Source: Candidatus Nealsonbacteria bacterium (GTDB lineage Bacteria > Patescibacteriota > Minisyncoccia > Minisyncoccales > JANBVM01). Taken from it: 64,000 bases of DNA. The stretch lies in assembly GCA_026016225.1 (NCBI GenBank), contig CP061210.1:450000-513999 (forward strand). The letters are read 5' to 3'. This document shows positions 12,888 to 63,370 of the stretch, piece after piece. The notes under the pieces are model-generated. The model searched no databases. It saw only the letters and a program-made list of their open reading frames with translations, and had not been told where the DNA came from. Both the position numbers and the translations under genes were made by a program. The stretch's first letter is position 1, and each line of letters starts with the position of its first letter.

Positions 12888-12948
12888 AAGACCGAGCCAA
12901 AGGCTCGGGCTTCAATAACTCCAAGAGACGGACAAGGTTAGAACCTCT
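12888..12948 (-). repeat. S-type intergenic repeat
   Basis: Minus strand: AGAGGTTCTAACCTTGTCCGTCTCTTGGAGTTATTGAAGCCCGAGCCTTTGGCTCGGT. Shares an exact ~31-nt block with 13674..13738. Confidence 0.7.
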
Positions 12949-12966
12949 TTAATGAAGGTTTTGGAA

Positions 12967-13673: not shown

Positions 13674-13738
13674 AAAAACCCGAGCCAAAGGCTCGGGCTT
13701 CAATAACTCCCCGCAATAGACGATGTTAGAACCTGTTA
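13674..13738 (-). repeat. S-type intergenic repeat
   Basis: Minus strand: TAACAGGTTCTAACATCGTCTATTGCGGGGAGTTATTGAAGCCCGAGCCTTTGGCTCGGGTTTTT. Confidence 0.75.
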
Positions 13739-14535: not shown

Positions 14536-14716
14536 AAAACCCGAGTTTCTAGCTCGGGTTGAGTGGTCACGTAAAATGACTGCGTCGTCACGTGGCCGCG
14601 TGATGAATTCTGTAAAGAATTCATTTTACGCGGCTCCGGCGGCAGGATTCGAACCGAGGCCTCTCGGTCCTCGAACTACGCACAGCGATGCTGGCATCCT
14701 CGGTCTAGAACTTGAA
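14536..14716 (-). repeat. T-type composite repeat (tRNA-like GGTTCGAATCC...CCGCCGGAG fragment plus unique long hairpins)
   Basis: Minus strand: AGTTCTAGACCGAGGATGCCAGCATCGCTGTGCGTAGTTCGAGGACCGAGAGGCCTCGGTTCGAATCCTGCCGCCGGAG..., ending in CCCGAGCTAGAAACTCGGGTTTT. Confidence 0.7.
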
Positions 14717-15200: not shown

Positions 15201-15276
15201 CTCCGGCGGCAGGATTCGAACCCCTCTCGGTCGTCCTAGGAGGATAGGCGTCTCGGTCTCTTGAACCAAGCACAAG
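15201..15276 (-). repeat. T-type repeat (tRNA 3'-half-like fragment)
   Basis: Minus strand: GCTTGGTTCAAGAGACCGAGACGCCTATCCTCCTAGGACGACCGAGAGGGGTTCGAATCCTGCCGCCGGAG. T-loop plus acceptor-like strand but no 5' half. Confidence 0.7.
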
Positions 15277-15345
15277 TATTATTCTTCATTCTAATAGTAA
15301 GCAAAATGTAAGTTGGAGGATTGGAATTTCTATACTTGCTCCTGA

Positions 15346-16539
15346 TTATTTCTTTCGAATTATTGATGGTATAAATGTATTTTCGCCCGTCCATCTGCCT
15401 GCGGCAGTAATATTCTCTCCAGATTGAAAATCTTTTAATTCTACCTTGCCTCCATCTTTGTTCAAAAGTGTCGTTTTCTCGGTAATTGCCAAACTTATTT
15501 CCTTCCCTTGCTCATCTCGTATTGTGATGACTTTGGCACTTAATGCTATATCTGTAATTGTTCCTATTATAGTTTCGAGAAGGTATTTTTCTATGTTCTC
15601 TTTGTGTTCCTCGTAGGTTTTGGCAAGGTGAATTTGCCCCTCGCTGTCGTGTAAGTAGTAAAGGTAATCGCTGGGCTGGTCGTAGACTACTGCTTCAATT
15701 GCTGCTAATCCCGGATTGCAGATTGGGGCTGGCGGTTTACCTTCGTGCAGGTAAGTATTATATGGCGATTCTATTTTGTATTCTTCTGGCGTTACTGGTC
15801 TCCACCACCTGCCTTGTTCTCCGACAACGTATTGGATGGTTGCGTCAATTTCTAACGGCATTGGTTTAAGCAATCTGTTCCAAATAATTCCCGCTATCAA
15901 CGGCATCTCTTCTTCATTGGCTGCTTCTCTTTGAATGATAGAGGCAAGAATGATTGCGGTATCATTACGGATGTTTTGCTCTGCGAATTCTTTAAATATT
16001 TCTTGACACTTCTCATTAAAATTACTTTCCATTCTTTTAGCCGCTTGTTCTGCCATATTTTCAAAATTAAGCACTTGAAGTAAATAAGTGTCGGGGAACA
16101 AATATCCTTCTTTGGCGTAATCTAAGAATTCCTCTTTTCTGTTGTCTAACCAATAAAGTTCTTCTTGTAATATCTCGGCAATTTCTTCCTTCCGCAGTCC
16201 TTCTGGTATTACTACCCAATTCTGGTATCGAAATCTAATAAAAGTATCTACTAAAGTCCAGACATTCATATTTTTTGAAATTTTGTATCCACCTGGCTCT
16301 ATCTTTCCTTCCCATCCTTTTGTTTTTAATACAAACCTAAATGCCCACTCGCTTCTTATATAACCCTGTTCTTTTAGTTTATATATTAGTTCTTCTTCGG
16401 TTGTACCGAGATTAATAACGATTCTCTCCATTTCTAATCCTTTTTCTGGAGCTGAAAATAAACATTGGTATATTCCAATAGGAATCCCTATCACCAAAAT
16501 TATCCCGCTTATAATTCCAATTTTTTTATTTCTAGTCAT
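15346..16539 (-). CDS. mltG: Endolytic murein transglycosylase MltG (YceG-like) with C-terminal extension
   Basis: N-terminal TM segment. KEGYLFPDTY and LASIIQREA motifs of the YceG family. Confidence 0.8.
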   Translation of the reverse strand: MTRNKKIGIISGIILVIGIPIGIYQCLFSAPEKGLEMERIVINLGTTEEELIYKLKEQGYIRSEWAFRFVLKTKGWEGKIEPGGYKISKNMNVWTLVDTFIRFRYQNWVVIPEGLRKEEIAEILQEELYWLDNRKEEFLDYAKEGYLFPDTYLLQVLNFENMAEQAAKRMESNFNEKCQEIFKEFAEQNIRNDTAIILASIIQREAANEEEMPLIAGIIWNRLLKPMPLEIDATIQYVVGEQGRWWRPVTPEEYKIESPYNTYLHEGKPPAPICNPGLAAIEAVVYDQPSDYLYYLHDSEGQIHLAKTYEEHKENIEKYLLETIIGTITDIALSAKVITIRDEQGKEISLAITEKTTLLNKDGGKVELKDFQSGENITAAGRWTGENTFIPSIIRKK

Positions 16540-17883: not shown

Positions 17884-17892
17884 ATTCTACCA
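17884..17892 (-). promoter_or_regulatory. Extended -10 box TGGTAGAAT, 7 nt from the ATG (leaderless-type)
   Basis: Minus strand: GGCGGTTTTTTGGTAGAATgggagtgATG. Confidence 0.5.
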
Positions 17893-18049
17893 AAAAACCG
17901 CCCGAGAGGCGACTTTTTGTTTATACTTAAAATTCGATTTCCTAGACGGATATGGCGATTTTTTCTCGAACTGCTTTTAAAATATGAGGACTTTCGGTCG
18001 CTCGAAAGGTCTCACTAGTCTGCTCTACTACTGAGATTAGAACCTGTCT
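17888..18049 (-). repeat. Composite S/T-type repeat
   Basis: Minus strand: AGACAGGTTCTAATCTCAGTAGTAGAGCAGACTAGTGAGACCTTTCGAGCGACCGAAAGTCC...GTCGCCTCTCGGGCGGTTTTTT. Starts ~10 nt after the pyrD stop. Confidence 0.7.
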
Positions 18050-21581: not shown

Positions 21582-21653
21582 AAAACCCGAAACAACAACT
21601 CTCGGGCAAAAAATCGTAACTCCCGCCGACTGGACGCTGTTAGAACCTGTTTG
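21582..21653 (-). repeat. S-type intergenic repeat
   Basis: Minus strand: CAAACAGGTTCTAACAGCGTCCAGTCGGCGGGAGTTACGATTTTTTGCCCGAGAGTTGTTGTTTCGGGTTTT. Confidence 0.75.
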
Positions 21654-25480: not shown

Positions 25481-25554
25481 AAAAAAATCAAGTTCAGAAC
25501 GAGCTTGATTTTACTCACTGGGGGCCTTGGACGATGTTAGAACCTGTTTTATGA
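25481..25554 (-). repeat. S-type intergenic repeat
   Basis: Minus strand: TCATAAAACAGGTTCTAACATCGTCCAAGGCCCCCAGTGAGTAAAATCAAGCTCGTTCTGAACTTGATTTTTTT. A separate terminator precedes it. Confidence 0.8.
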
Positions 25555-27756: not shown

Positions 27757-27897
27757 CTTAAAATCCGAGACAATCCGCCAGCTGGCAGAACCCGGGTTTT
27801 AAAAGCCCCCTTAGTCGGTCTCGAACATAGTTTTTAAGGGGAAACTAAGGGCTTTTTGAAGGTGTCCCACAATGCCCCTCGGTCGGAGCTGTTTTAA
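27757..27897 (-). repeat. L-type long intergenic repeat
   Basis: Minus strand: AAACAGCTCCGACCGAGGGGCATTGTGGGACACCTTCAAAAAGCCCTTAGTTTCCCCTTAAAAACTATGTTCGAGACCGACTAAGGGGGCTTTTAAAACCCGGGTTCTGCC... Confidence 0.7.
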
Positions 27898-29327: not shown

Positions 29328-29398
29328 AAAAACCCGATAAATAATCTCGGGCTAAACAGAGCTCCGGGGGCTGGACGATGTTCAAACCTATTTTATGA
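29328..29398 (-). repeat. S-type intergenic repeat
   Basis: Minus strand: TCATAAAATAGGTTTGAACATCGTCCAGCCCCCGGAGCTCTGTTTAGCCCGAGATTATTTATCGGGTTTTT. Confidence 0.75.
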
Positions 29399-32394: not shown

Positions 32395-32450
32395 TACGAA
32401 TCGAACCCCTCTCGGTCTCTCGAAAGTCTCACAGCTTAGCTCCCCCTAAT
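32395..32450 (-). repeat. T-type repeat fragment
   Basis: Minus strand: GGGGAGCTAAGCTGTGAGACTTTCGAGAGACCGAGAGGGGTTCGATTCG. Confidence 0.6.
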
Positions 32451-34647: not shown

Positions 34648-35049
34648 TTAAACTCCTCTAATTTTGCGATATTTAGAGATTAAATTATTTATACTTTCTG
34701 AAGATAAATATCCTGTTTGTTCTTCTATTTTTAAAATAAATTCAATAAACCCTAATAGATCTTTGGGATTTGCTTTTAAAATTTCTCCTTCTGTTTTAGA
34801 ATCATACATTCTTGCTTTTGAAATACGCTGAAAAATATCTTTATCAGCAAGATATTGCATATTCGATTTATAACAAAAATAACCATCTACTACTGTTATT
34901 ACCGTAGCCTCTGGTAAGCCCATTAATACAAAAGTTGGTAAGTTTCTACCAGTAATCTTCCTAATAAGATTAGCTAACGGTTCTCCCCAAAGTGGCTTTA
35001 ATGATTGTTTAGGTTGCTTACCAAATAGAATTCTTTTAATTTTTTTCAT
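34648..35049 (-). CDS. Hypothetical protein (133 aa)
   Basis: ORF preceded by a leaderless-type promoter module. Confidence 0.45.
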   Translation of the reverse strand: MKKIKRILFGKQPKQSLKPLWGEPLANLIRKITGRNLPTFVLMGLPEATVITVVDGYFCYKSNMQYLADKDIFQRISKARMYDSKTEGEILKANPKDLLGFIEFILKIEEQTGYLSSESINNLISKYRKIRGV

Positions 35050-35055
35050 ATTTCT

Positions 35056-35064
35056 ATTCTACCA
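35056..35064 (-). promoter_or_regulatory. Extended -10 box TGGTAGAAT, 6 nt from the ATG (leaderless-type)
   Basis: Minus strand: GGTTTTTTGGTAGAATagaaatATG. Confidence 0.5.
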
Positions 35065-35210
35065 AAAAACCATCCACCTCGTCGAGCGAAGCGAGACAGG
35101 CCTTCCTACCCACAATGTTTCATATGTAAAAAGAAAAGTTATTTTATATATAACACTTATTTTGTCAAACTAAACTAAGAACAAATCCAGAATAGACCCA
35201 AAAATTTTAA

Positions 35211-35249
35211 CTCAGCCCCCCCTGGTGCCACAATTTTAGAATCTGTTCT
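35211..35249 (-). repeat. S-type core (divergent, no adjacent hairpin)
   Basis: Minus strand: GAACAGATTCTAAAATTGTGGCACCAGGGGGGGCTGAG. Confidence 0.5.
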
Positions 35250-35286
35250 TATATATTTGTCCTTAAAAATTACCTTATAAATTTGC

Positions 35287-36276
35287 TTAAGATGCTAACT
35301 GACCACAAGCAGCTTTAATATCTTGACCAAAACGATAACGCTGGGTAACCTGAACACCCCCTTTTTCCAAAATTTCTTTGAACTTTTTCATACGCCAAGA
35401 TGAGGATGGTTTAAAAACTCCTGTTGGATTGTAGGAAATTAGGTTTACAAAATAAAGAGGTTTTTTCATTAACTTGCTTAATTTTTGGGCGTAGACGTCA
35501 GAATCATTTAAGTCTTTCATCATCAGATATTCAAACATAACTTTACGTTTGGTTTTTCCAATATAATCATCAACTACCTCAAGCACATCAGCAATAGGAT
35601 ATTTTTTATTTATTGGCATTATTTTTGAACGCAAATCATCATCAGGAGCATGAAGAGAGATAGCTAAATTTACCTGAAGTTTTTCTTCAGCTAATTTCTT
35701 AATGCCTTCTAAAATCCCAACGGTTGAGATAGAAATATGTCTGGCTCCCAAATTAAACCCTTCTTTGTCATTTAAAACCCTTATAGCGCTAATAACATTC
35801 TCATAATTCAGAAAAGGTTCTCCCATTCCCATAAAAACAATATTGGTAACTTTTTCTCCTTTTTTCTTTAGGTGACGGGCAAAAAATAGAACTTGTTCCA
35901 CAATCTCAGAAATTTCAAGGTTTCTTTTGAAACCAGTTTGTCCGGTAGCGCAAAATGAACAACTCAAGGCACAACCCACCTGTGAAGAAATACAAACAGT
36001 ATTCCGACCATCTTTATGTTTCATTAAAACAGACTCAATCTTTAGTCCATCTTTTAATATAATGAGAGTTTTTGCAGTCTTTTTGTCTTTAGAAAAAAGA
36101 GTTTGAGCATTAATTTTAATGGGACATATTTTGTTCAGATTCTCTCGCAACAACAAAGGCAAAATATTCGCTTCTCTCCAGTCTTCAATCAAATCAACAA
36201 ATAAGGCTTTTTTGGCTTGTTTTAGACGATAGGGATGTTCCTTATTAAGAAGGTTTTCAAGTTGAGTTAAATCCAT
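35287..36276 (-). CDS. rlmN: 23S rRNA/tRNA (adenine-C2)-methyltransferase RlmN (radical SAM)
   Basis: GCALSCSFCATG cluster motif, MGMGEPFLNY, and C-terminal GQDIKAACGQL. Confidence 0.85.
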   Translation of the reverse strand: MDLTQLENLLNKEHPYRLKQAKKALFVDLIEDWREANILPLLLRENLNKICPIKINAQTLFSKDKKTAKTLIILKDGLKIESVLMKHKDGRNTVCISSQVGCALSCSFCATGQTGFKRNLEISEIVEQVLFFARHLKKKGEKVTNIVFMGMGEPFLNYENVISAIRVLNDKEGFNLGARHISISTVGILEGIKKLAEEKLQVNLAISLHAPDDDLRSKIMPINKKYPIADVLEVVDDYIGKTKRKVMFEYLMMKDLNDSDVYAQKLSKLMKKPLYFVNLISYNPTGVFKPSSSWRMKKFKEILEKGGVQVTQRYRFGQDIKAACGQLAS

Positions 36277-36284
36277 ATTGACTT

Positions 36285-36293
36285 ATTATATCA
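36285..36293 (-). promoter_or_regulatory. Extended -10 box TGATATAAT, 8 nt from the rlmN ATG (leaderless-type)
   Basis: Minus strand: GGGTTTTTGATATAATaagtcaatATG. Confidence 0.5.
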
Positions 36294-36385
36294 AAAACCC
36301 GAGCTAAATGCTCGGGCTTTAAAAACTTGCACTGAGCTTGCCGAAGTGCTCCCCGCAATAGACGATGTTAGAACCTGTTTTATGA
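36293..36385 (-). repeat. S-type intergenic repeat (long spacer)
   Basis: Minus strand: TCATAAAACAGGTTCTAACATCGTCTATTGCGGGGAGCACTTCGGCAAGCTCAGTGCAAG...GCCCGAGCATTTAGCTCGGGTTTTT. Confidence 0.8.
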
Positions 36386-36525
36386 CTTTTTCTTGGGTAT
36401 GAAACAAAAAACCATACCAACCAAAGAATCCAAAGAGCTTCTAAATAATCTCCATTTATAATTCCTATTATTCCTTTTATTCCAAAAAATCCCAGAAATC
36501 CAAATACCCATCTTTTACGCATCAT
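36319..36525 (-). CDS. Possible small membrane protein whose predicted C-terminus is encoded by the S-type repeat
   Basis: The N-terminal ~45 aa are hydrophobic. The tail ...SHKTGSNIVYCGEHF... is the translation of the repeat core. Confidence 0.3.
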   Translation of the reverse strand: MMRKRWVFGFLGFFGIKGIIGIINGDYLEALWILWLVWFFVSYPRKSHKTGSNIVYCGEHFGKLSASF

Positions 36526-36650
36526 AAACTAATTGTTTAGTTATCAATTAAAACCCTTACTATATTTTATCAAAAAACCACCTAACTGATTATGAAAAAA
36601 AAGCCCAAGAATGGGCTTGATTTCATTTATTTGATTTACTGAATTAATTC

Positions 36651-36848
36651 TTAAAGGCGGGTTACGTTTGTTGCGTTAGGGCCCTTTGGAGAATCAGCTT
36701 TTTCGAAAGACACTCTATCACCTACTTTTAACTCTTCGTAGGTTACGCCCTTAAGTTCGTTGCTGTGAAAGAATAAATCTTTCTCTTCACCATCAACGGT
36801 AATAAATCCAAATCCTTTATCTGTAAGGTTTTTAATTGTTCCTTCCAT
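36651..36848 (-). CDS. Cold-shock protein (CspA family)
   Basis: KGFGFI (RNP1) and DLFFH (RNP2-like) motifs. 65 aa. Confidence 0.9.
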   Translation of the reverse strand: MEGTIKNLTDKGFGFITVDGEEKDLFFHSNELKGVTYEELKVGDRVSFEKADSPKGPNATNVTRL

Positions 36849-36951
36849 GATTGTGATATAAATTAATTAATATTTTAAGGTTTTATCCTAAAGTTTAGTT
36901 TCCTGAAAAAACTCAACTAAATTTTCATTAGGCAACTATCTTATGTAAATA

Positions 36952-36980
36952 ATATTAACATCTAAAAAATAATTGGTCAA
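36952..36980 (-). promoter_or_regulatory. Sigma70-type promoter of the csp gene (TTGACC-17 nt-TAATAT), giving a ~100-nt 5'UTR
   Basis: Minus strand: TTGACCaattattttttagatgtTAATAT. Confidence 0.5.
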
Positions 36981-37110
36981 CCAAAAAACCACCTAACTGA
37001 TAAGGTGGAAAATGCGAGCTCCCATACTCGGTCTAGAACCTTTGTTTTAAGGGGAAATTCAGCAGTTTTTGGAGCCTTTGAATAACGCGTCTCGGTCAGG
37101 GTATTTTAAG
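36981..37110 (-). repeat. L-type long intergenic repeat
   Basis: Minus strand: CCCTGACCGAGACGCGTTATTCAAAGGCTCCAAAAACTGCTGAATTTCCCCTTAAAACAAAGGTTCTAGACCGAGTATGGGAGCTCGC...CCACCTTATCAGTTAGGTGGTTTTTTGG. Confidence 0.7.
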
Positions 37111-37141
37111 CTAAAATGAGACAAATGAAACAGTAAATAGG

Positions 37142-37939
37142 CTAAAGAATATATTTTTCTTCAACTAAGAATCCTGGATGTTTAAAGATAGCTATAGCGA
37201 ACTTGTTATCTGGGGAGGTAACAATATAATTGTGTTTATCTTTATCTAATGGCACGGGCTCATATTTTTTCACGCTTGAGCCCTCAGGGATATATTGAAG
37301 ATCAAAAACAGGAGAAATAAAATAGCAATTAGCGTTTACCTTAAAGAACTCGTCTAAATCTTCGCTTTTGTAATTCAAAAAGTCCCTTTGATAAACCAAA
37401 ACAATCTCTTCGTAATTTTTTACTATCATTTGAAGTTTTTCAACATCTATGGGTCGGAAGGGAGATAAGGAATCACCTACTAAATTTTCATAATCAACAT
37501 ACTCTTTAACTTGGAAAAGATAAGGTAAATGTTCCGCAGGCAATCTGAGCTGTTTATCGTCCAATTTATCAATCTTTACTCCGGGTTCAACAATCATCAC
37601 CGCAGTATCGCACGAGGATTCTTTTTTTGGCAAAACAACAAAAATTAAACTACCGGAAGGGAACTTACTTTCCAAATATCTGAGGAATACTGTTGTAATA
37701 AATAACTCTTTTACCTTCTGTCCGTCTATTTGTTTACTGGCTACTGTAAGTTGGTCTTGTGCATTTAATTTGAAAATAGAATCGGTTAATATTTGGGCAT
37801 CAACAGGAATTACACTACCAGGCGGAAGATTCTTGAATTTATATGCTAAAGCAGCTCTAAAAATCTCTTCATAAACTCCCTGACAATTTACTCCCTCCTC
37901 ACGGCGATAGCCAAAAATTATTTTCCATGGTGTTTGCAT
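37142..37939 (-). CDS. Hypothetical protein (265 aa), third gene of a three-gene operon
   Basis: ORF only. Starts 6 nt after the upstream gene. Confidence 0.5.
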   Translation of the reverse strand: MQTPWKIIFGYRREEGVNCQGVYEEIFRAALAYKFKNLPPGSVIPVDAQILTDSIFKLNAQDQLTVASKQIDGQKVKELFITTVFLRYLESKFPSGSLIFVVLPKKESSCDTAVMIVEPGVKIDKLDDKQLRLPAEHLPYLFQVKEYVDYENLVGDSLSPFRPIDVEKLQMIVKNYEEIVLVYQRDFLNYKSEDLDEFFKVNANCYFISPVFDLQYIPEGSSVKKYEPVPLDKDKHNYIVTSPDNKFAIAIFKHPGFLVEEKYIL

Positions 37940-37945
37940 TATAAC

Positions 37946-38203
37946 TTACTTCAGGTCAATATTTTTTATTCTATCTAAAATTTTTTGATACCATTGAATT
38001 TGTTTTATTGTATCTTCAAAATCGTAATATGTTAATTTCCTATGTATTCTATTCCAAATAGCTGATCTTGTTATCGTTCCATTTTTGAAGAAAATATACA
38101 TCTTGGATTCAACAGAAGCGCCACCGTACACAAGCGGATATGTTCTAACAGTTTCGCCCCTCTCTTTTGCTTCTTCTTTTATTAGTTTTGTTAGCTCTGT
38201 CAT
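37946..38203 (-). CDS. Hypothetical protein (85 aa)
   Basis: 4-nt ATGA overlap with the upstream ORF. Confidence 0.45.
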   Translation of the reverse strand: MTELTKLIKEEAKERGETVRTYPLVYGGASVESKMYIFFKNGTITRSAIWNRIHRKLTYYDFEDTIKQIQWYQKILDRIKNIDLK

Positions 38204-38754
38204 ATTTTCAAAATTTTAATTTTCTTAATTTTTTCTTTCATAAGAACTTTAATTAATTTATCCCAGTCTCCAGTTATATGCAATTCTCCTCTTTCAATCG
38301 CCCTCTCAAGGTTGGTCTTTCTTTCTAATAATAAGAAAGAAAAGTCTCCTAATTTTTGTTCATCTGGATAGTATTTGTAGTTGGTGTTTTCAGAAACAGT
38401 CAGGTAAATACACTTTATTTCTTTATTGACTCTTTTTATAGAGCCAAATACCTTTTTTATATTTTCAACTCCCTCTTTTGAATAAATCCCTCTGAATTTT
38501 ATTTCCAAAACTGCAATAACTTGCTTAGGTTTATAAAGTAAATTTTCTTGAGCTTTTTCTCCTTCTTTTAGCACTATCAAATCTAATTCATAAGGAATGC
38601 CTTTGATAAAAACATCTCTATTACTTACATTGAGTCCCTTTTTAATGAACTCTTTTCTTAAAAGCTCGATAGTTAATGCACCAATGAATTTGGTAGCTCT
38701 CATTTCGTTCCTAAATTTCATTATTGTGTTTAGTAGTTTGAGTTCCTTTTTCAT
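38200..38754 (-). CDS. PD-(D/E)xK nuclease-fold candidate (184 aa)
   Basis: YELDLIVLK ... VIAVLEIKF spacing fits a D...ExK catalytic core, with a preceding helix Glu (LTIELL). Confidence 0.4.
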   Translation of the reverse strand: MKKELKLLNTIMKFRNEMRATKFIGALTIELLRKEFIKKGLNVSNRDVFIKGIPYELDLIVLKEGEKAQENLLYKPKQVIAVLEIKFRGIYSKEGVENIKKVFGSIKRVNKEIKCIYLTVSENTNYKYYPDEQKLGDFSFLLLERKTNLERAIERGELHITGDWDKLIKVLMKEKIKKIKILKI

Positions 38755-38836
38755 CTATTTTATGATTTCTAAAAATCAGTTTCTCTGCTTTTAAAATAAC
38801 CTCATTTCTTTGAAATTTCAAGCCGAAATAAAAATT

Positions 38837-38850
38837 GCCCAGCGATGGGC
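38837..38850. terminator. Hairpin GCCCAGCGATGGGC with flanking A/T runs (copy 1 of 3 identical)
   Basis: aaaaattGCCCAGCGATGGGCtttttaaat. Identical 14-mers at 61905 and 63214. Confidence 0.6.
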
Positions 38851-38894
38851 TTTTTAAATCAAATTAAGAAAAAACTAATTTATCCATCAAAAAT

Positions 38895-39674
38895 TTAAAC
38901 ATCCATTTTTTCTTCAGCAACTTGTTTAATCTTCTGTTGAATTTTCTCTTTAAATTCCTTACCAACTGAATCAAATAGTGTTAAAAGCTGTTCGAAGGTA
39001 TCTTCGCCACCGAGAAAATTCCAATATTCTTCACCAATTAAAAATTCTTTTCCTCTTTCTAAAACTCCTTGTTCTGTAAATCTTTCGTATGGCTTTGGAT
39101 GATAGGGATTATAGGGGAAAGATAGGAAAACTTTTACTGGTTTTCTGCGCCGTGCTATCCATTCTAATAATTTTGTCTTTGATTTTGTAAAAACATCGAT
39201 ATTAGGTTTTACGGTTTTAATTTCAAAATAATGTTCTACGCCCCCTTTAAGTATATAAAGGTCAGCTATTCTACCTTCTTTCTGAGCCTTACCATCTCTT
39301 GGAGAAGCACTTAAAACTTCTTTCATTTCTCTTTCACTATTTACCCTTCTTTCCTTATTCCTTAATTCGCGGACTATATTACCTATAATGGACTTTTGCT
39401 CTTTTGAAAGTACGCCACCAATATCATATTTAGTAAAACATTCTTTGGCAGAATCAGAAGCAATAATTTTTGAAACGTCTTCATAAATAGACATTCCTAA
39501 CGTCGTAGCTAAAGAATGAATAAAGGAATAAGCAGCAACTTTTTCGCTGTCTTGAATAAGACGAGTAAGAAATGGCATTGAGGTAGTTTCTCGGCTATAT
39601 CTTTTTAACTTACTCTCAATTTTTTGCTGTAATAATCCTTTAATCTGTTGTTTTTGATTGCTTGATAATGGCAT
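38895..39674 (-). CDS. Probable type II restriction endonuclease (TdeIII-like by recollection)
   Basis: Starts 5 nt after the methyltransferase gene. FIHSLATTLGMSIYE and YFEIKTVKPN (ExK-like) motifs. The family assignment needs an HMM check. Confidence 0.45.
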   Translation of the reverse strand: MPLSSNQKQQIKGLLQQKIESKLKRYSRETTSMPFLTRLIQDSEKVAAYSFIHSLATTLGMSIYEDVSKIIASDSAKECFTKYDIGGVLSKEQKSIIGNIVRELRNKERRVNSEREMKEVLSASPRDGKAQKEGRIADLYILKGGVEHYFEIKTVKPNIDVFTKSKTKLLEWIARRRKPVKVFLSFPYNPYHPKPYERFTEQGVLERGKEFLIGEEYWNFLGGEDTFEQLLTLFDSVGKEFKEKIQQKIKQVAEEKMDV

Positions 39675-39679
39675 AGGAT

Positions 39680-40855
39680 CTAGTGATTTTTAATAAAATA
39701 ATAAATGCTTTCGCTAAACCTTATGTTGTCACGCTCTGTTCTCATAAGAACAGGGCGGTGATATATTTTTTCAATACTGTAATTACAAAGTTTAGCGATG
39801 TCCGGATAGAGATTATCTCTGTCATTAACAACGACAAATATTTTTGCTTTTGGTTTCAACCACTGATTAATATTTTTAAAAACTTCAATAATATCCCTTT
39901 TATACTCTTCTTTGGCTTCCTGACTTTTGCCTTTTGATGCAGGGCCAATTTCTTTTACACAATTATTATCAAACCCAAAAAGCTCATAAGCATAACGGTG
40001 TTGGTCGTGATAATCGATTAAGCCAATATAGGGAGGAGAGGTAAAAATGCCGTCAAATTTACCACCCTTATAATCCGGAAGCTCATTTAGTTTTATTTCC
40101 CTTGAGTCTCCTTGAATAATTTTCATTTTAGCGTTAGTTCTTAACTCATCAAATTCTTTAATACGCCTTATAGTACCTAAACTGTAACGATTTATGAATT
40201 TTAGAGCTTCATCAACTGGCCGACATGTCCTCTTGTGTTTTATACACCAATAGGGCTTTTTTATTGGCTTTTTAGGTCTTGCCAAATCATAATGAGGTAT
40301 TTGACGAGCACTCCGAGCCGAACGACTTAATATTATTTTTAGGATATCTTGGTTTTTATAATTTTTAATTTGTTCTCGATAAAACAAAATCTCCTGCAAT
40401 GCTCTTTTAGAGAACCATGTATTGAAATAATTATTATCTATCGTAAACTCTTTGTATCCCTTTTTAAACAAGGCAGGTTGTTTTGAATGTCGATACCAAT
40501 TACTAAAATCTTTTGTTTTAGATAGAATATCCTTAATCTCAGCTTCTACTTCTGGAATGTTATATTTTTTTGTTTTAATTTCAGAAATTAAACAATTAAA
40601 AAGGGAAATCTCTATACCTGCTGAATTCATACCAAGGATGTTAGATTCAATAAGAGCAGTTCCTGACCCCAAAAAGGGATCTAATATCCAATCTCCTTTT
40701 TTGAAGTAATGTTTTAAAAATGCCTCTACGAGTTGCGGTATAAATTTACCTAAATAAGGATGTAAACGATGGACATGTTTTGTTCTTTTATATTCTTGCA
40801 CATTGGCAAAAGATAAATCTATCCCGTTTAATGATGTTAGAGATTTGTTTGACAT
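39680..40855 (-). CDS. DNA methyltransferase (N6-adenine/N4-cytosine type)
   Basis: DPFLGSGT (SAM motif I) in the N-terminal part and FTSPPY (catalytic motif IV) in the C-terminal part. Confidence 0.75.
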   Translation of the reverse strand: MSNKSLTSLNGIDLSFANVQEYKRTKHVHRLHPYLGKFIPQLVEAFLKHYFKKGDWILDPFLGSGTALIESNILGMNSAGIEISLFNCLISEIKTKKYNIPEVEAEIKDILSKTKDFSNWYRHSKQPALFKKGYKEFTIDNNYFNTWFSKRALQEILFYREQIKNYKNQDILKIILSRSARSARQIPHYDLARPKKPIKKPYWCIKHKRTCRPVDEALKFINRYSLGTIRRIKEFDELRTNAKMKIIQGDSREIKLNELPDYKGGKFDGIFTSPPYIGLIDYHDQHRYAYELFGFDNNCVKEIGPASKGKSQEAKEEYKRDIIEVFKNINQWLKPKAKIFVVVNDRDNLYPDIAKLCNYSIEKIYHRPVLMRTERDNIRFSESIYYFIKNH

Positions 40856-40902
40856 ATCTATTCCTTAATTTACCTTACACTTATTTTTGTTTTTTATCAA
40901 AT

Positions 40903-40938
40903 GATTTTTGACAATTTTTGACGACTTTTGACAAAAAA
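40903..40938 (-). promoter_or_regulatory. Three helically phased direct repeats GTCAAAA (10-nt period) upstream of the methyltransferase gene
   Basis: Minus strand: TTGTCAAAAGTCGTCAAAAATTGTCAAAAATC. Lies ~50-80 nt upstream of the ATG. Confidence 0.45.
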
Positions 40939-40960
40939 CGAAGCCTTATGGTTTCGCTAG
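40936..40960 (-). terminator. Rho-independent terminator of 41051..41704
   Basis: Minus strand: CGAAACCATAAGGCTTCG followed by TTTTTTG. Confidence 0.5.
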
Positions 40961-40978
40961 GATAATTTTTTTATATAG

Positions 40979-41105
40979 ATTTTGGCTGCTTGCATTGAGC
41001 TTGCCGAACTGCTAGCATTCTCGGTCCAGAACAGAAATTTTAAGAGGAAATTAAGGGCTTTTTGGGGGTGTTTCAGAACGCGTCTCGGTCGGTTCGTCTT
41101 TGGTG
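40979..41105 (-). repeat. L-type long intergenic repeat (overlaps the 3' end of the upstream ORF)
   Basis: Minus strand: GACCGAGACGCGTTCTGAAACACCCCCAAAAAGCCCTTAATTTCCTCTTAAAATTTCTGTTCTGGACCGAGAATGCTAGCAGTTCGGCAAGCTCAATGCAAGCAGCC. Confidence 0.7.
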
Positions 41106-41704
41106 GGTTGCGGCGGCTGGGTTGCGGCGGACGGCTTTTTCTTCTTATAGACCCAGGAATATATCCATTCTATGGGCATCGGCTTCACTTGTTTTTTTGA
41201 TATTTTTTCAATTTCTTGATTTAGATAAAAAAGCATTATACTTGCAATCGTTAAAAAATCACCTCTAGCTCCCTCTGGATAAATACTTCTTGCCTCTTGT
41301 AAATTTCTTACAATATCGGAAGAGTAAATTAAAGTAGTTAATAGGTCTTTTACAACACCACTTTCTAGATTTGAGCCATATACATTATGAGCAAAATCAT
41401 TTCTTATTTTTCTTATTATATGAAGATCATGCGCAAGTTTTTGACTAATTAAACCTAAACGATGTGCAAATTGTACTTTCGAATTGAAATTTGACAGGGG
41501 AGCTGTAGGACCATCAAATAATTCATCATCCTTGGTGCTTACCTGAACAAGATAATTTTTTAATAAAGTAGTTAGTGTGTTCTCAATTAGAGAGGCGGTT
41601 AAAATCATGGCCGCACGATCTGTTTCTTTAGAAAACTCCTCTAAAAGAAAATCTGCCCAATATTCTGGCAAACTTTTTTTTATTTTTTTTTCATTATCTG
41701 GCAT
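41051..41704 (-). CDS. DUF4145-like protein (domain common in R-M/abortive-infection contexts)
   Basis: IRKIRNDFAHN motif. Start moved to MPDNEKK because the upstream 25 codons lie in the tRNA-like repeat. The Pro/Thr-rich C-terminal tail is encoded by the L-type repeat. Confidence 0.5.
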   Translation of the reverse strand: MPDNEKKIKKSLPEYWADFLLEEFSKETDRAAMILTASLIENTLTTLLKNYLVQVSTKDDELFDGPTAPLSNFNSKVQFAHRLGLISQKLAHDLHIIRKIRNDFAHNVYGSNLESGVVKDLLTTLIYSSDIVRNLQEARSIYPEGARGDFLTIASIMLFYLNQEIEKISKKQVKPMPIEWIYSWVYKKKKPSAATQPPQPTKDEPTETRSETPPKSP

Positions 41705-41759
41705 AAATTTATATATATTTTTCGTTAATCTCGAAACTATATCTACATCCGCTGACGTC

Positions 41760-41869
41760 CTCTCGGTCGCAAAAACCAAGCACTAACCTGCTCCGGCGTT
41801 AGGATTCGAACCCCTCTCGGTCGCCCTAACGCCATAAGCGTCTCGGTCCTCGAACTGCGCTCAACGATG
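41760..41869 (-). repeat. T-type tRNA-like repeats directly abutting the 3' end of tRNA-Gln
   Basis: Minus strand after the tRNA: GCATCGTTGAGCGCAGTTCGAGGACCGAGACGCTTATGGCGTTAGGGCGACCGAGAGGGGTTCGAATCCTAACGCCGGAGCAGGTTAGTGCTTGGTTTTTGCGACCGAGAG. It contains a 9-bp stem, GGCGTTAGG/CCTAACGCC. Confidence 0.75.
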
Positions 41870-41940
41870 CTGCGGGGCTAGGATTCGAACCTAGATTGAG
41901 TTCTTCAAAGGAACCTGTGCTACCATTACACCACCCCGCA
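41870..41940 (-). tRNA. tRNA-Gln (anticodon UUG)
   Basis: Minus strand: TGCGGGGTGGTGTAATGGTAGCACAGGTTCCTTTGAAGAACTCAATCTAGGTTCGAATCCTAGCCCCGCAG. Manual cloverleaf has a 7-bp acceptor (U1-A72), anticodon loop CTTTGAA and T-loop TTCGAAT. No encoded CCA. Confidence 0.85.
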
Positions 41941-41951
41941 TTAATAAGTGA

Positions 41952-43076
41952 TTAAGCCAGTGATTCAGTAATTTCAACTATTGCCAGTTCTAAAGGTAGT
42001 TGTGGAATTGAGGAGTATTTCATTTTGTTTTGGGCCTGCAAAAATATATCTACAATTTTTCTCAAATCTTCTTGTTTAAATTTCTCTGTTTGTCTCTTAA
42101 GTGTTCTAATTTCTTCTTTTGTCAAACCTGATAAATATCCATACGAAGAAGCAGGATTTTCACCCTCCCCCATTATCTTAAGAATTAATGCTTTTCTTAG
42201 ATAACCAACCAGGGTTTTAGCAAACTCGTCTAAATCTAAACCCTTTCCACTAATTTCATTTAAATATTCTATTGTTTTAAAGGTTTTTTTATCCGAGAGA
42301 AAATCAGTGAATTTGCTGACTAACTCTATCTCTACCAAGCCTAATAAATCTTTAATGTCTTCAGCTTTTATCTCTTTTTCAGAATCTTTATAAAAAGTAG
42401 AAACCTGGTCTAATAAGCTTTCTGCATCTCTGATTGAACCTCCGGCATTTAGAGCTATTAATTCTAAGGCTGGTTTTTCGATTTTAATATTTTCCTTTTT
42501 AATGATAATTGTCAACTTTTTTATAATTTCTGACAAGGTGAACTTTCTAAAATCAAATCTCTGACATCTGGAGATGATTGTTGGAATCATTTTATGGATT
42601 TCTGTTGTAGCTAAAACGAAAATAGCATGGGCTGGCGGTTCCTCTAAAGTTTTCAAAAGGGCGTTAGCAGCATCTTTTGAAAGTTGATGAGCTTCATCCA
42701 GAATAAAGACTTTATATTTTGATTTTGTTGGAGAAAATCTAATTCCATTTTTCAGTTCTCTGATATCATCAATTCCCCTGTGGGAAGCAGCATCAATTTC
42801 AATTAAATCTATTGCTCTTCCTCCCATAATTTCAACACATGAAGAACACTTATCACAGGGTTCAAATTCCCCTTCTTTTCTATTTTGACAATTAACAGCT
42901 TTAGCTATTAGCCGGGCCATAGTTGTCTTCCCCGTTCCCTTAGGTCCTGAAAATAAATAAGCATGGGAAATCATTCCCTTTGAAATTGCATTGGTTAAGG
43001 TTTTGGCAATGTGTTCTTGACCAATAAATTCAGCGAAAGTTTGGGGACGATATTTTCGATATAGAACTAAAGACAT
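41952..43076 (-). CDS. dnaX: DNA polymerase III subunit gamma/tau (short form)
   Basis: GPKGTGKTTMARLIAKAVNC Walker A, zinc module CxxC, and SRCQRFDF sensor motif. Confidence 0.9.
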   Translation of the reverse strand: MSLVLYRKYRPQTFAEFIGQEHIAKTLTNAISKGMISHAYLFSGPKGTGKTTMARLIAKAVNCQNRKEGEFEPCDKCSSCVEIMGGRAIDLIEIDAASHRGIDDIRELKNGIRFSPTKSKYKVFILDEAHQLSKDAANALLKTLEEPPAHAIFVLATTEIHKMIPTIISRCQRFDFRKFTLSEIIKKLTIIIKKENIKIEKPALELIALNAGGSIRDAESLLDQVSTFYKDSEKEIKAEDIKDLLGLVEIELVSKFTDFLSDKKTFKTIEYLNEISGKGLDLDEFAKTLVGYLRKALILKIMGEGENPASSYGYLSGLTKEEIRTLKRQTEKFKQEDLRKIVDIFLQAQNKMKYSSIPQLPLELAIVEITESLA

Positions 43077-43777: not shown

Positions 43778-44662
43778 TTATTCGCTCTTTAATGCTTCTA
43801 AAATTTTTTTAAATTCTTTATATCGGGTTCTTAATGTTACTTCAGTTACGTTAGCGGCCTTAGCTAATTCCCGTTGTGTTATCTTTTCACCATATTGTTT
43901 GCAAGCGAGATATAGGGCAGCAGCTACTAATCCAGTAGGTTTTTTTCCCAGGGCGAGACCACCTTCTTCAGCCGTTTTTAAGAGCTGGCCAGCCAGAATT
44001 TGACTTCTTCCAGAAATAGCAAGCTTTTCAGAAATTCCTGGAATATATTTTAGTGGATCTAACGGTGCAATTTTTATATCAAGCACATTGAGTAAAAGTT
44101 TACAATAGCGATTAATAGTTTTTTTGCTGATAGAAGTTATCTCTGAAATTTCTTCAATAGTTTTTGGAATTTCCTTTACTCTATAGGCAATATAAATAAC
44201 AGCAGCAGCTAAATGTTCAAAACTTCTACCTTGAGTAGGAAGTTTTTTTAAAGCTTTATATAAAATCACTGCTGATTCTAATTTAACGGGCCATTCAACA
44301 TTGAGCTGGCTTAATAAAGAATGAAGTCTATCCATTGCTACATTAATTCTGTGTTTTTCTGGACCAAGGAGGCAACTGTGCCATTTTCTCATTCGATTTA
44401 TTACAGGTTGTGTATGTGAGGGAATTTTGTTTCCTCTAAAATCAAGATTTTTATGATCTATATAGCCTCCTGGGATTCCGTAATAAGTTATCGCTCCTAC
44501 AGGATATTTCGGCTCTCCATATTTTCGTTTTACACCTCCTGTCTGGTCTAATTCTTTATCCCTGATTATAAGTCCGCATTCACAACACCATTCACCTCTT
44601 GTCAGGTCGTAACTGAAATTACTATTTCCACATTCCGGGCATACTTCAACCTCTTCTTTCAT
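43778..44662 (-). CDS. Transcription factor IIB / archaeal TFB homologue
   Basis: N-terminal zinc ribbon CPECG...CCECG. Two cyclin-like repeats (GRSFEHLAAAVIYIAYR...TINRYCKLL and GKKPTGLVAAALYLACK...TLRTRYKEF). Confidence 0.8.
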   Translation of the reverse strand: MKEEVEVCPECGNSNFSYDLTRGEWCCECGLIIRDKELDQTGGVKRKYGEPKYPVGAITYYGIPGGYIDHKNLDFRGNKIPSHTQPVINRMRKWHSCLLGPEKHRINVAMDRLHSLLSQLNVEWPVKLESAVILYKALKKLPTQGRSFEHLAAAVIYIAYRVKEIPKTIEEISEITSISKKTINRYCKLLLNVLDIKIAPLDPLKYIPGISEKLAISGRSQILAGQLLKTAEEGGLALGKKPTGLVAAALYLACKQYGEKITQRELAKAANVTEVTLRTRYKEFKKILEALKSE

Positions 44663-60794: not shown

Positions 60795-60802
60795 ATTATC
60801 CC

Positions 60803-60811
60803 ATTATACCA
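60803..60811 (-). promoter_or_regulatory. Extended -10 box TGGTATAAT, 8 nt from the ATG (leaderless-type)
   Basis: Minus strand: CTCGGTTTTTTGGTATAATgggataatATG. Confidence 0.5.
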
Positions 60812-60873
60812 AAAAACCGAGCTAAATGCTCGGGCTACAAAAATTCCGAGGGGCGGACGATGTTAGAACCTGT
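60811..60873 (-). repeat. S-type intergenic repeat starting immediately after a stop codon
   Basis: Minus strand: (TAA)ACAGGTTCTAACATCGTCCGCCCCTCGGAATTTTTGTAGCCCGAGCATTTAGCTCGGTTTTTT. Confidence 0.8.
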
Positions 60874-61716
60874 TTACTTGAATTTTGCAGCGTGTCCTAA
60901 CCCGAAATAAATAGTTACAGGAATCTTATATTCCTTTGATAACTGCCTAATCTTGCCTTGGGCTTTATTGTAGAACTCATAAAATTTCTTTTTATTAAAA
61001 AGCGTTTCTTGTATTTCGGATAAGAGTTTTGGATAATTTTTTTTGAGCACTTTTTCTACACCAGTCCAGTTTCCTCCAACAGTATTAAAACTTTCTGTAA
61101 AGATATACTTTACCCTCACCCTTTTAAACTCTTTAAATAGGGCTTCGGGGTTTGTGAAAACTGGCCAGTATGGACCCATCATCACCAAAACAGTTATTCC
61201 TTCCTTAGTTAGCTTTTTCACTGCTTTTAAGCGTTGTCTTATTGTTGAGGAATTTGGTTCGATGAGCTTTTTCCATTTCTCATCAAGCGTAGTAACTGTA
61301 AAGTTAACATCAACATCTTTCATTTTTTTCAACAAAGCAATATCGCGGAGCACCAAATCAGATTTTGTAAGAATACTTACTGGGTTCTTATAATCTATTA
61401 AAACTTGTAATATGCCCCTTGTAAGCTTATATTCCTTTTCAATCGGCTGATATGGGTCAGTAACGGTTCCTATAAAAATTCGTTCACCTTTATATTTAGG
61501 TGACTTTAATTGTTTTTTAAGGACATCAGCAATGTTTATGCGTGCATCTACAAAGGTTCCCCATTCTTCAGTATGGCCTGTAAATCTTTTGATAAAACGG
61601 GCATAGCAATATACGCAACTATGGCCACAACCAACATAAGGATTTATTGCTAATCCGCCTCCGGGAAAACCACACTTTCCAATCGCTGATTTGCATTGTA
61701 TTTCTCTGACTTTCAT
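60874..61716 (-). CDS. Radical SAM protein of the SplB / DNA-repair-photolyase-like family
   Basis: NPYVGCGHSCVYCYARF cluster motif. 280 aa. Confidence 0.7.
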   Translation of the reverse strand: MKVREIQCKSAIGKCGFPGGGLAINPYVGCGHSCVYCYARFIKRFTGHTEEWGTFVDARINIADVLKKQLKSPKYKGERIFIGTVTDPYQPIEKEYKLTRGILQVLIDYKNPVSILTKSDLVLRDIALLKKMKDVDVNFTVTTLDEKWKKLIEPNSSTIRQRLKAVKKLTKEGITVLVMMGPYWPVFTNPEALFKEFKRVRVKYIFTESFNTVGGNWTGVEKVLKKNYPKLLSEIQETLFNKKKFYEFYNKAQGKIRQLSKEYKIPVTIYFGLGHAAKFK

Positions 61717-61731
61717 TCTTTTATTTTACAT

Positions 61732-61826
61732 AAAAACCGCCTTCTTGGCGATTTTTTATGCCTCTCGGTCGCTCGAACCGAGCACTATTCTGCTCCGGGG
61801 AGCAGACGACGTTCGAACCTATTGGC
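61732..61826 (-). repeat. Composite S/T-type repeat
   Basis: Minus strand: CAATAGGTTCGAACGTCGTCTGCTCCCCGGAGCAGAATAGTGCTCGGTTCGAGCGACCGAGAGGCATAAAAAATCGCCAAGAAGGCGGTTTTT. Confidence 0.75.
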
Positions 61827-63249: not shown

Positions 63250-63370
63250 TAAAACAGGGTTAAAAACCCTGTTTTCGCTGCTGAGGTCCGGCGGTAGGAC
63301 TCGAACCCGTCTCGGTCTCTCGAACCGAGCACTAGCCTGCTCCCCAATAGGACTCGAACCCCTACGGGTT
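63250..63370 (-). repeat. T-type repeat with two tandem T-loop-like units
   Basis: Minus strand: GTAGGGGTTCGAGTCCTATTGGGGAGCAGGCTAGTGCTCGGTTCGAGAGACCGAGACGGGTTCGAGTCCTACCGCCGGACCTCAGCAGCGAAAACAGGGTTTTTAACCCTGTTTT. Confidence 0.75.

Follow-up and report, generated by a model that had tools for sequence, protein, structure and literature searches.

Dispersed tRNA-Asn 3'-end-like modules in Candidatus Nealsonbacteria, one of them behind a tRNA-Gln gene, are probable attachment sites of large serine recombinases

A tRNA gene that is followed without a gap by pieces resembling the end of another tRNA raises the question of which tRNA these pieces came from and what they do. The locus lies in a 64-kb stretch of DNA (hereafter the window) that is bacterial, has 33.6% G+C and carries the majority of its genes on the minus strand. 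Its tRNA-Gln(TTG) has a U1:A72 pair and G73, CCA is not encoded, and the trailer begins at the base immediately after the tRNA 3' end. The minus-strand sequence quoted for this flank in a preliminary description of the window was present as written and gapless. Inspection of the flank revealed three modules, namely the trailer of tRNA-Gln itself, a 48-nt module ending in GGTTCGAATCCTAACGCCGGAG (the T module), and a second trailer (Table 1). The first trailer is of the Gln type, which was also found 3' of tRNA-Gln in the loci L023, L137, L139, L163, L171, L084 and L125. The perfect 9-bp inverted repeat that had been claimed for the flank was located in the T module, where the 21-nt loop between the arms GGCGTTAGG and CCTAACGCC consists of GCGACCGAGAGG and GGTTCGAAT. 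A functional tRNA gene was considered for the module and rejected, as tRNA-Gln and tRNA-Glu were the sole tRNA genes that ARAGORN and Rfam gave for the window, and none of the modules obtained a score with the tRNA model at E ≤ 1.

Table 1. Features of the tRNA-Gln flank and of the other module copies and genes discussed (positions in the window)
Feature	Coordinates	Strand	Basis or remark
DnaX	41952-43076	-	
tRNA-Gln(TTG)	41870-41940 (start 41869/41870)	-	ARAGORN; Rfam RF00005, 62.6 bits
Gln-type trailer module CATCGTTGAGCGCAGTTCGAGGACCGAGACG	41839-41869	-	Degenerate version of the trailer after tRNA-Gln genes in relatives
Long-form T module, pseudo tRNA-Asn 3' end, proposed recombinase attachment core	41791-41838	-	
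T module, left arm GGCGTTAGG	41825-41833	-	Sequence
T module, 12-nt GCGACCGAGAGG	41813-41824	-	Sequence
T module, GGTTCGAAT	41804-41812	-	Sequence
T module, right arm CCTAACGCC	41795-41803	-	Sequence
T module, terminal GGAG	41791-41794	-	Sequence
Asn-type trailer module CAGGTTAGTGCTTGGTTTTTGCGACCGAGAGG	41759-41790	-	Family listing; also 3' of real tRNA-Asn genes
Variable gene block downstream of the module	34648-41707	-	Pfam
N6/N4 DNA methylase	39680-40855	-	Pfam
TdeIII-type restriction endonuclease	38895-39674	-	Pfam, E = 1.6e-57
Pseudo end (GTTCTAGACCGAGGATGCCAG), Gln-type trailer and short-form T module (GACCGAGAGGCCTCGGTTCGAATCCTGCCGCCGGAG)	14634-14711	-	
Trailer module and long-form T module ending GGTTCGAATCCTGCCGCCGGAG	15201-15286	-	Families D9, D10
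YceG	15346-16539	-	
Trailer module and truncated T module (TTCGAGAGACCGAGAGGGGTTCGATTCG)	32395-32424	-	Family D15
D1-type pseudo end (AGGTTCGAACGTCGTCTGCTCCCCGGAG) and Asn-type trailer, right before a terminator	61761-61823	-	Families D1, D10
Tandem of T-like end, Asn-type trailer and short-form T module (GGTTCGAGTCCTACCGCCGGAC), then a terminator	63286-63365	-	

The modules were found to be multiplied in the window. The sequence GACCGAGA occurred in 13 copies, exclusively on the minus strand, where 0.54 were expected for the window; GGTTCGARTCCT occurred in 6 copies (0.02 expected) and the trailer 19-mer GGAGCAGGYTAGTGCTYGG in 3 copies (0.01 expected), all of them likewise on the minus strand. 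Read on this strand, the T module follows the pattern GGGGTTCGA(A/G)TCCTnnCGCCGGAG. The long form, which was frequent, is preceded by ..CTATnnnnnTAGGGCGACCGAGAGG, and the short form stands directly after a trailer module. Two types of trailer module were distinguished, one reading ..GGAG followed by CAGGCTAGTG..GTTCGAGnGACCGAG and the other ..GCAG followed by CAnCnTTGAGC..GTTCGAGnGACCGAG. The recurrences listed in the preliminary description were recovered at 15201-15258, 32395-32424, 61761-61798 and 63286-63360; the one placed at 14536 was about 100 nt off and corresponds to the copy at 14634-14711 (Table 1). The end of the copy at 15201-15286 was identical to the tRNA 3' end of L196, a tRNA-Asn, and the copy nearest the end of the window held two T-loop motifs. 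The tandem units were also considered as coding sequence, which was ruled out by their spacings of 55, 57 and 80 nt, mostly not multiples of three. A related motif, D1 (AACAGGTTCTAACATCGTCC..(G/C)AG), was present in at least 15 copies in the window, immediately 3' of stop codons and 5' of intrinsic terminators, for example at 12919-12949, 13707-13737, 21621-21651, 25518-25548, 29362-29392, 36349-36379 and 60844-60874. It ends like tRNA-Asn or tRNA-Gln and is then followed by the matching trailer type.

Other features of the window were noted in passing. An 80-nt repeat family, starting with GACCGAGACGCG and ending with GTTCTAGACCGAG, was found on the minus strand at 27805-27884, 37018-37097 and 41011-41090, with two copies flanking the restriction-modification block downstream of tRNA-Gln. 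The boxes TGGTAGAAT or TGATATAAT were observed a few bases past intrinsic terminators (e.g. 60795-60873, 17886-17920 and 35050-35070); they look like extended -10 promoter elements, so that termination and the next promoter would be packed together. An ORF of 294 aa at 43778-44662 on the minus strand matched the Pfam TFIIB repeat with E = 1.1e-32 and the TFIIB zinc ribbon weakly. It is a transcription factor of archaeal/eukaryotic type in a bacterial genome, and the gene may have been acquired from an archaeal host.

The source of the T module was sought among the tRNA genes of related loci. ARAGORN found 13 tRNA-Gln and 10 tRNA-Asn genes in the family loci, with U1:A72 and G73 in all of them; as the preliminary description states, module and tRNA-Gln share this end type. 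A tRNA with the acceptor 5'-TCCGGCG, which had been predicted from the module, exists in the relatives L175, L061 and L196, and it is tRNA-Asn. The tRNA-Asn(GTT) of L175 reads TCCGGCG...GGTTCGAATCCTACCGCCGGAG; those of L061 and L196 are equivalent, the latter ending in GGTTCGAATCCTGCCGCCGGAG. From the T loop to the discriminator, the T-module consensus agreed with the tRNA-Asn of L175 and L196 at 22/22 bases. The window copy agreed with the tRNA-Asn of L175 at 21/22 bases, compared with 19/22 for the neighbouring tRNA-Gln. As for the trailers, GGAG followed by CAGGCTAGTG and the trailer module stands behind real tRNA-Asn in L133, L143, L169, L173, L180 and L189, and real tRNA-Gln genes have a 3' trailer of the type GCAG followed by CAACCTTGAGC; in the family listing the GCAG end goes with the CxxCxTTGAGC trailer type. 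A trailer module is found behind real tRNA-Asn and tRNA-Gln in most relatives, and tRNA-Gly, tRNA-Thr and tRNA-Glu are without it. Because end type and trailer type go together across the family, the repeated unit is a tRNA 3' end plus its trailer. Judged by this sequence comparison, the T module was shown to copy the T loop, the 3' T-stem strand, the 3' acceptor-stem strand and G73 of tRNA-Asn. The resident tRNA-Asn acceptor stems differ among genomes while there is one T-module consensus, implying that the modules are not freshly copied from the local gene. The earlier proposal that a tRNA 3' end was multiplied across the region together with its trailer was borne out. It was also observed that a tRNA-3'-end-like fragment, GTGAGTTCGAATCTCGCCTCCGGCTC, lies about 20 nt after tRNA-Thr(CGT) in L084:3717-3770 and in L147 (same sequence), which suggests the same kind of duplication at another tRNA.

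The T-module 22-mer was present in 73 metagenome contigs and in 0 viral contigs. Scans of viral contigs yielded no CPR (candidate phyla radiation) phage with the module; the matches there were only GC-rich phages that carry tRNA genes or have tRNA-Asn as attachment site. When species genomes were scanned with a 17-mer, most matches were chance ones in GC-rich genomes, the useful part being Nealsonbacteria and related loci; the matches listed include Candidatus Nealsonbacteria, with two complete genomes (0.64 and 0.69 Mb), and related genomes. In total, 91 copies in 84 loci were collected, with tandem units of 55-80 nt, and the family is confined to one lineage, Candidatus Nealsonbacteria and related Parcubacteria. 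Gln-type T modules exist elsewhere in it (L136, L163 and L139). The composite itself recurs at a non-orthologous site in another species, where L073:2085-2188 and window 41762-41864 share 90% identity over 104 nt; the L073 block follows a D1 motif behind a protein gene, away from any tRNA. Literature searches found no description of such a tRNA-Asn-like module family.

The copies are intergenic and lie between a stop codon and an intrinsic terminator, in the same direction as the upstream gene. In tandem gene arrays, copies oriented with the genes outnumbered those oriented against them by 44:1 (T core) and 35:0 (D1 motif), which makes 79/80 in total. All markers of a locus were on one strand, and minority-strand genes rarely have room after them; an attempt to separate transcription coupling from replication coupling by strand analysis failed, there being no locus with markers on both strands. 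No inverted doublets were found, every copy being in direct orientation. A reading of the modules as DNA uptake sequences was rejected because the orientation is strict and the copies are confined to intergenic DNA.

Comparison of related loci showed that gene order breaks at the T module. At the feoB locus, L185 was matched at 92-93% identity by L134 and L165 for 2.6 kb or more and by L187 along its 577 nt, and the identity ended exactly with the final base of the T module. What follows this base on the right was a terminator (L134), an Asn-type trailer (L165 and L187) or a recombinase element (L160 and L185). In the window, the identity to orthologous dnaX-tRNA-Gln loci ended at 41791 (L125) and 41789 (L163), and the orthologous copies were 78-82% identical where dnaX DNA was 70-72% identical. 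The tRNA-Gln flank, which the preliminary description proposed to compare among related genomes, is retained in L125 and L163, and is missing in L170, where tRNA-Gln is directly followed by a terminator. The block downstream of the module in the window encodes a hypothetical protein, the methylase, the restriction enzyme, three hypothetical proteins, a radical-SAM protein and a 133-aa ORF. No homologues of these proteins were found downstream of tRNA-Gln in L125 and L163, where DnaX and a 641-aa protein do have homologues, and the block is presumably island cargo. It was further observed that L088, L128, L132, L153, L156, L164, L167, L183 and L191 share up to 126 nt of identical left flank plus the T module, followed by at least six different right flanks, one of which is a recombinase gene; several contigs start or end there. 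Integration at this site may vary strongly within one population, or the assemblies may break there at a repeat.

Clustering of the 528 ORFs of the 84 loci yielded 14 large serine recombinases in 14 loci, an enrichment whose figure is biased because possession of the module was the criterion by which the loci had been retrieved. Two lines of evidence stand outside this bias, namely a fixed recombinase geometry and an independent homologue search. Pfam assigned Resolvase and Recombinase domains to all 8 recombinases scanned from related loci, and Zn_ribbon_recom to 7 of them; for the set of 14, Resolvase and Recombinase were counted in each and the zinc ribbon in 13. The recombinase gene was antisense to a T module in 8 loci, whose proteins share no more than 26-35% identity with the reference recombinase (L156). 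In 6 of the 8 loci, representing four distinct sequences (L141/L158, L156, L160/L185 and L192), the stop codon was placed 17 nt 5' of GGTTCGA and was the CTA of ..CTAGGGCGACCGAGAGGGGTTCGA; the C-terminus was ..LRRQDSNPSRSP (..SRSH in L141/L158), which corresponds to the module read in antisense. The recombinase frame of L126 and L142 stopped at another point in or beside the module. The independent search retrieved 1844 proteins at E ≤ 1e-20, and the few source-named ones were from Parcubacteria-group lineages. Among the best 120 of these 1844 homologues, 87 had C-terminal tails that are the antisense of such a tRNA end: 45 ended in the antisense T-loop peptide, and 42 at ..LLR(R/G/E/W/C), the antisense of ..CCGCCGGAG.

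The same arrangement was seen at real tRNA genes. In L194 and L196, a homologous recombinase overlapped a real tRNA-Asn(GTT), by 28 nt in L194, where the tRNA lies downstream of dnaG-rpoD. The block with this recombinase carries terminase and primase-like genes, and since the L194 element has a terminase and a DnaG-zinc-ribbon protein, it was regarded as a small prophage-like element. The element-side sequence GGAG followed by CAT(C/T)TCAGGACAAACGGACGC was common to the real tRNA (L194) and the T module behind feoB (L160 and L185). At least six host contexts are in use, including tRNA-Asn, sites after feoB and a PLP-enzyme gene, and in L163 a recombinase was found 1.1 kb downstream of the tRNA-Gln units. 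Small prophage-like elements with a large serine recombinase sit at the tRNA-Asn 3' end or at T modules behind ordinary host genes in related genomes. Neither a far element junction nor a second T-like copy was found in the available sequence of L185, L160, L194, L196, L156 and L192, and Pfam and sequence searches found no recombinase, integrase or transposase gene or fragment in the window. As a separate observation, the LOOT RNA motif (Rfam RF03000, 81-102 bits) was located beside or inside serine-recombinase elements in six loci (L128:3517-3642, L150:1581-1701, L169:7684-7803, L191:1574-1689, L194:205-328 and L156:4588-4712). In four of the six it followed a recombinase gene of the 445-aa type on the same strand, at a distance of about 40 nt, and in the other two it lay at the far end of the element, the near end being tRNA-Asn or a T module. 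The element may use LOOT as a cofactor or as its second attachment target.

From these results we consider it probable that T modules are tRNA-Asn-derived, DNA-level attachment sites for serine-recombinase elements and that the window copy is an island edge. The attachment-site idea of the preliminary description holds in so far as T modules are probably the recombination or attachment points of serine-integrase elements in related genomes. The site of a large serine recombinase is about 40-50 bp long, with imperfect inverted half-sites around a central crossover dinucleotide, and long repeats are not required. The window copy has 9-bp arms and a 21-nt centre; across the family the right arm is conserved and the left arm variable. 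The T modules would act as such sites, primary-like or secondary, and the 9-bp inverted repeat would be a pair of protein-binding half-sites instead of an RNA stem. The copy at tRNA-Gln would mark the edge of a variable restriction-modification island that is now without a recombinase; we infer that recombination does occur at T modules and that the restriction-modification block of the window arrived by integration at one. The attachment model fails to explain several observations: the co-orientation of 79 of 80 copies, the placement between stop codon and terminator and the tandem arrays of T module plus trailer. Moreover, the window has no recombinase, the second junction of the elements was not found in the available sequence, and the exact 22-mer is absent from viral contigs. 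Because placement after genes, strict orientation, tandem arrays and the D1 motif are left unexplained, an RNA-level reading and a selfish-repeat reading stay as partial rivals. A wider version of the attachment model, which we regard as speculative and rather doubtful, would make the modules genome-wide landing sites for a large clade of serine recombinases. These would insert and exchange cargo of a prophage-like or defence kind, for example restriction-modification systems or nucleases of the OLD family (one of which is present in L128). This would amount to a cassette exchange built on a serine recombinase and a tRNA mimic, loosely resembling an integron, with the recombinase frames ending inside the site and LOOT perhaps as a second site or cofactor.

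The modules could instead work in transcripts as a tRNA-like processing or stability signal, for instance as a minihelix behind whose GGAG RNase Z or RNase P would cut, or by blocking 3' exonucleases, with phage elements merely landing there. The intergenic position before a terminator and along the upstream gene is in line with this, as are the presence of the trailer module behind real tRNA-Asn and tRNA-Gln, but not behind tRNA-Gly, tRNA-Thr and tRNA-Glu, in most relatives, the higher identity of the orthologous copies relative to dnaX DNA, and the good folding of the window copy, whose 111-nt flank gave -42.5 kcal/mol with z = -2.58. Nevertheless, the covariation that had been expected of the 9-bp stem was absent in 63 distinct long-form copies: 77.0% of cells were paired compared with 76.4% in shuffles, and 60 of 500 shuffles reached the observed value. 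Of the 63 copies, 51 had a broken fifth T-stem pair, and the outer pairs were disrupted in the majority. For the trailer modules, RNAalifold gave a stem, of 4 bp, in only one of the two classes, and compensatory changes were absent. ACCGAG was invariant across the family while the strand supposed to pair with it varied. No Rfam family matched the modules at gathering thresholds or at E ≤ 1, nor did the tRNA model score any of them. What is conserved across the family is sequence, not pairing, and an RNA-level function was judged to be unlikely as the main explanation.

Selfish or neutral repeats of the REP, BIME, BOX or MITE kind, spread by transposition or ectopic recombination and surviving only after genes, would account for a modular, multi-copy, intergenic and lineage-specific family whose units are arranged in tandems and mosaics. 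As the L073 copy indicates, the composite moves as one block, and the single T-module consensus in the face of differing resident acceptor stems is also compatible with such spread. The link to recombinases would then be incidental. Against this, terminal inverted repeats and target-site duplications were not found, neither the scanned ORFs of the window nor the recurrent protein clusters of the loci included a transposase, and all copies are in direct orientation. The fixed stop-codon offset in recombinases as divergent as those described above, together with the overlap with real tRNA-Asn, argues that the link is not incidental, and we hold the repeat explanation to be quite improbable. The original suggestion of fragments of a second Gln-type tRNA, with the tRNA-Gln flank as ancestral attachment site or master copy, could draw on the U1:A72 pair, G73 and 19 of 22 bases shared by tRNA-Gln and module and on the Gln-type T modules of L136, L163 and L139, but it is very hard to maintain, since the consensus and the trailer are those of tRNA-Asn(GTT), whose native trailer is GGAG followed by CAGGCTAGTG, recombinase elements sit at real tRNA-Asn genes, the composite in L073 is far from a tRNA, and L170 has a tRNA-Gln without the flank.

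If the attachment-site reading is confirmed, it would explain much of the non-coding DNA of these genomes, would provide a simple marker for prophages and defence islands in the recombinase C-terminus ..LRRQDSNP, and would contribute natural multi-site serine integrases whose target, of at least 22 nt, is defined. It is unusual that the multi-copy target is a dispersed sequence mimicking a tRNA 3' end, and that a serine recombinase takes the place of a tyrosine integrase. The host is unusual as well, being a bacterium of the candidate phyla whose genome measures about 0.65 Mb and whose mobile-element biology is poorly known.

Integration beside tRNA genes is textbook biology, and duplicates of tRNA 3' ends, from the T loop to the 3' end, are found at the attachment sites of integrative elements and prophages. 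The T module resembles them in that it spans exactly the T loop to the discriminator, lies at a gene-order break and has an integrase adjacent in related loci. A classical arrangement was seen in L223, where tRNA-Asn and a 25-nt 3' duplicate flank a 10-kb prophage. The T module differs in that its enzyme, instead of being a tyrosine integrase, is a large serine recombinase whose frame ends inside the site; that the module occurs at many sites behind ordinary genes and far from tRNAs; and that no bounding pair of direct repeats was found. The elements BIME/REP, BOX and ERIC are modular intergenic repeats after genes. Our family shares with them short mosaic modules that are intergenic, often just before terminators, and lineage-specific, but it lacks inverted doublets, a covarying hairpin and a REP-associated transposase, and is derived from a tRNA end and its trailer.

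The tandem repeats of the tyrT operon of E. coli encode rtT RNA, with rttR inside the tyrT repeat unit, and each unit carries the tRNA-Tyr 3' end. As in tyrT, a tRNA gene is directly followed here by units of tRNA 3' end plus trailer. In contrast to tyrT, the repeated end is that of Asn beside a Gln gene, and the units, 55-80 nt in size, are genome-wide, present in many species and tied to a recombinase. The element phiRv1 of Mycobacterium tuberculosis integrates into REP13E12 repeats. The concept of multi-targeting large serine recombinases was described by Durrant et al. 2022 (PMC10083194), with a clade marked by DUF4368 (PMC10083194). Unlike in these recombinases (PMC10083194), DUF4368 was not seen in the 8 recombinases scanned with Pfam, and the target here mimics a tRNA 3' end. 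What the T modules have in common with the targets of the multi-targeting recombinases (PMC10083194) and of phiRv1 is that the target sequence, here a putative one, is present at several places of the host genome.
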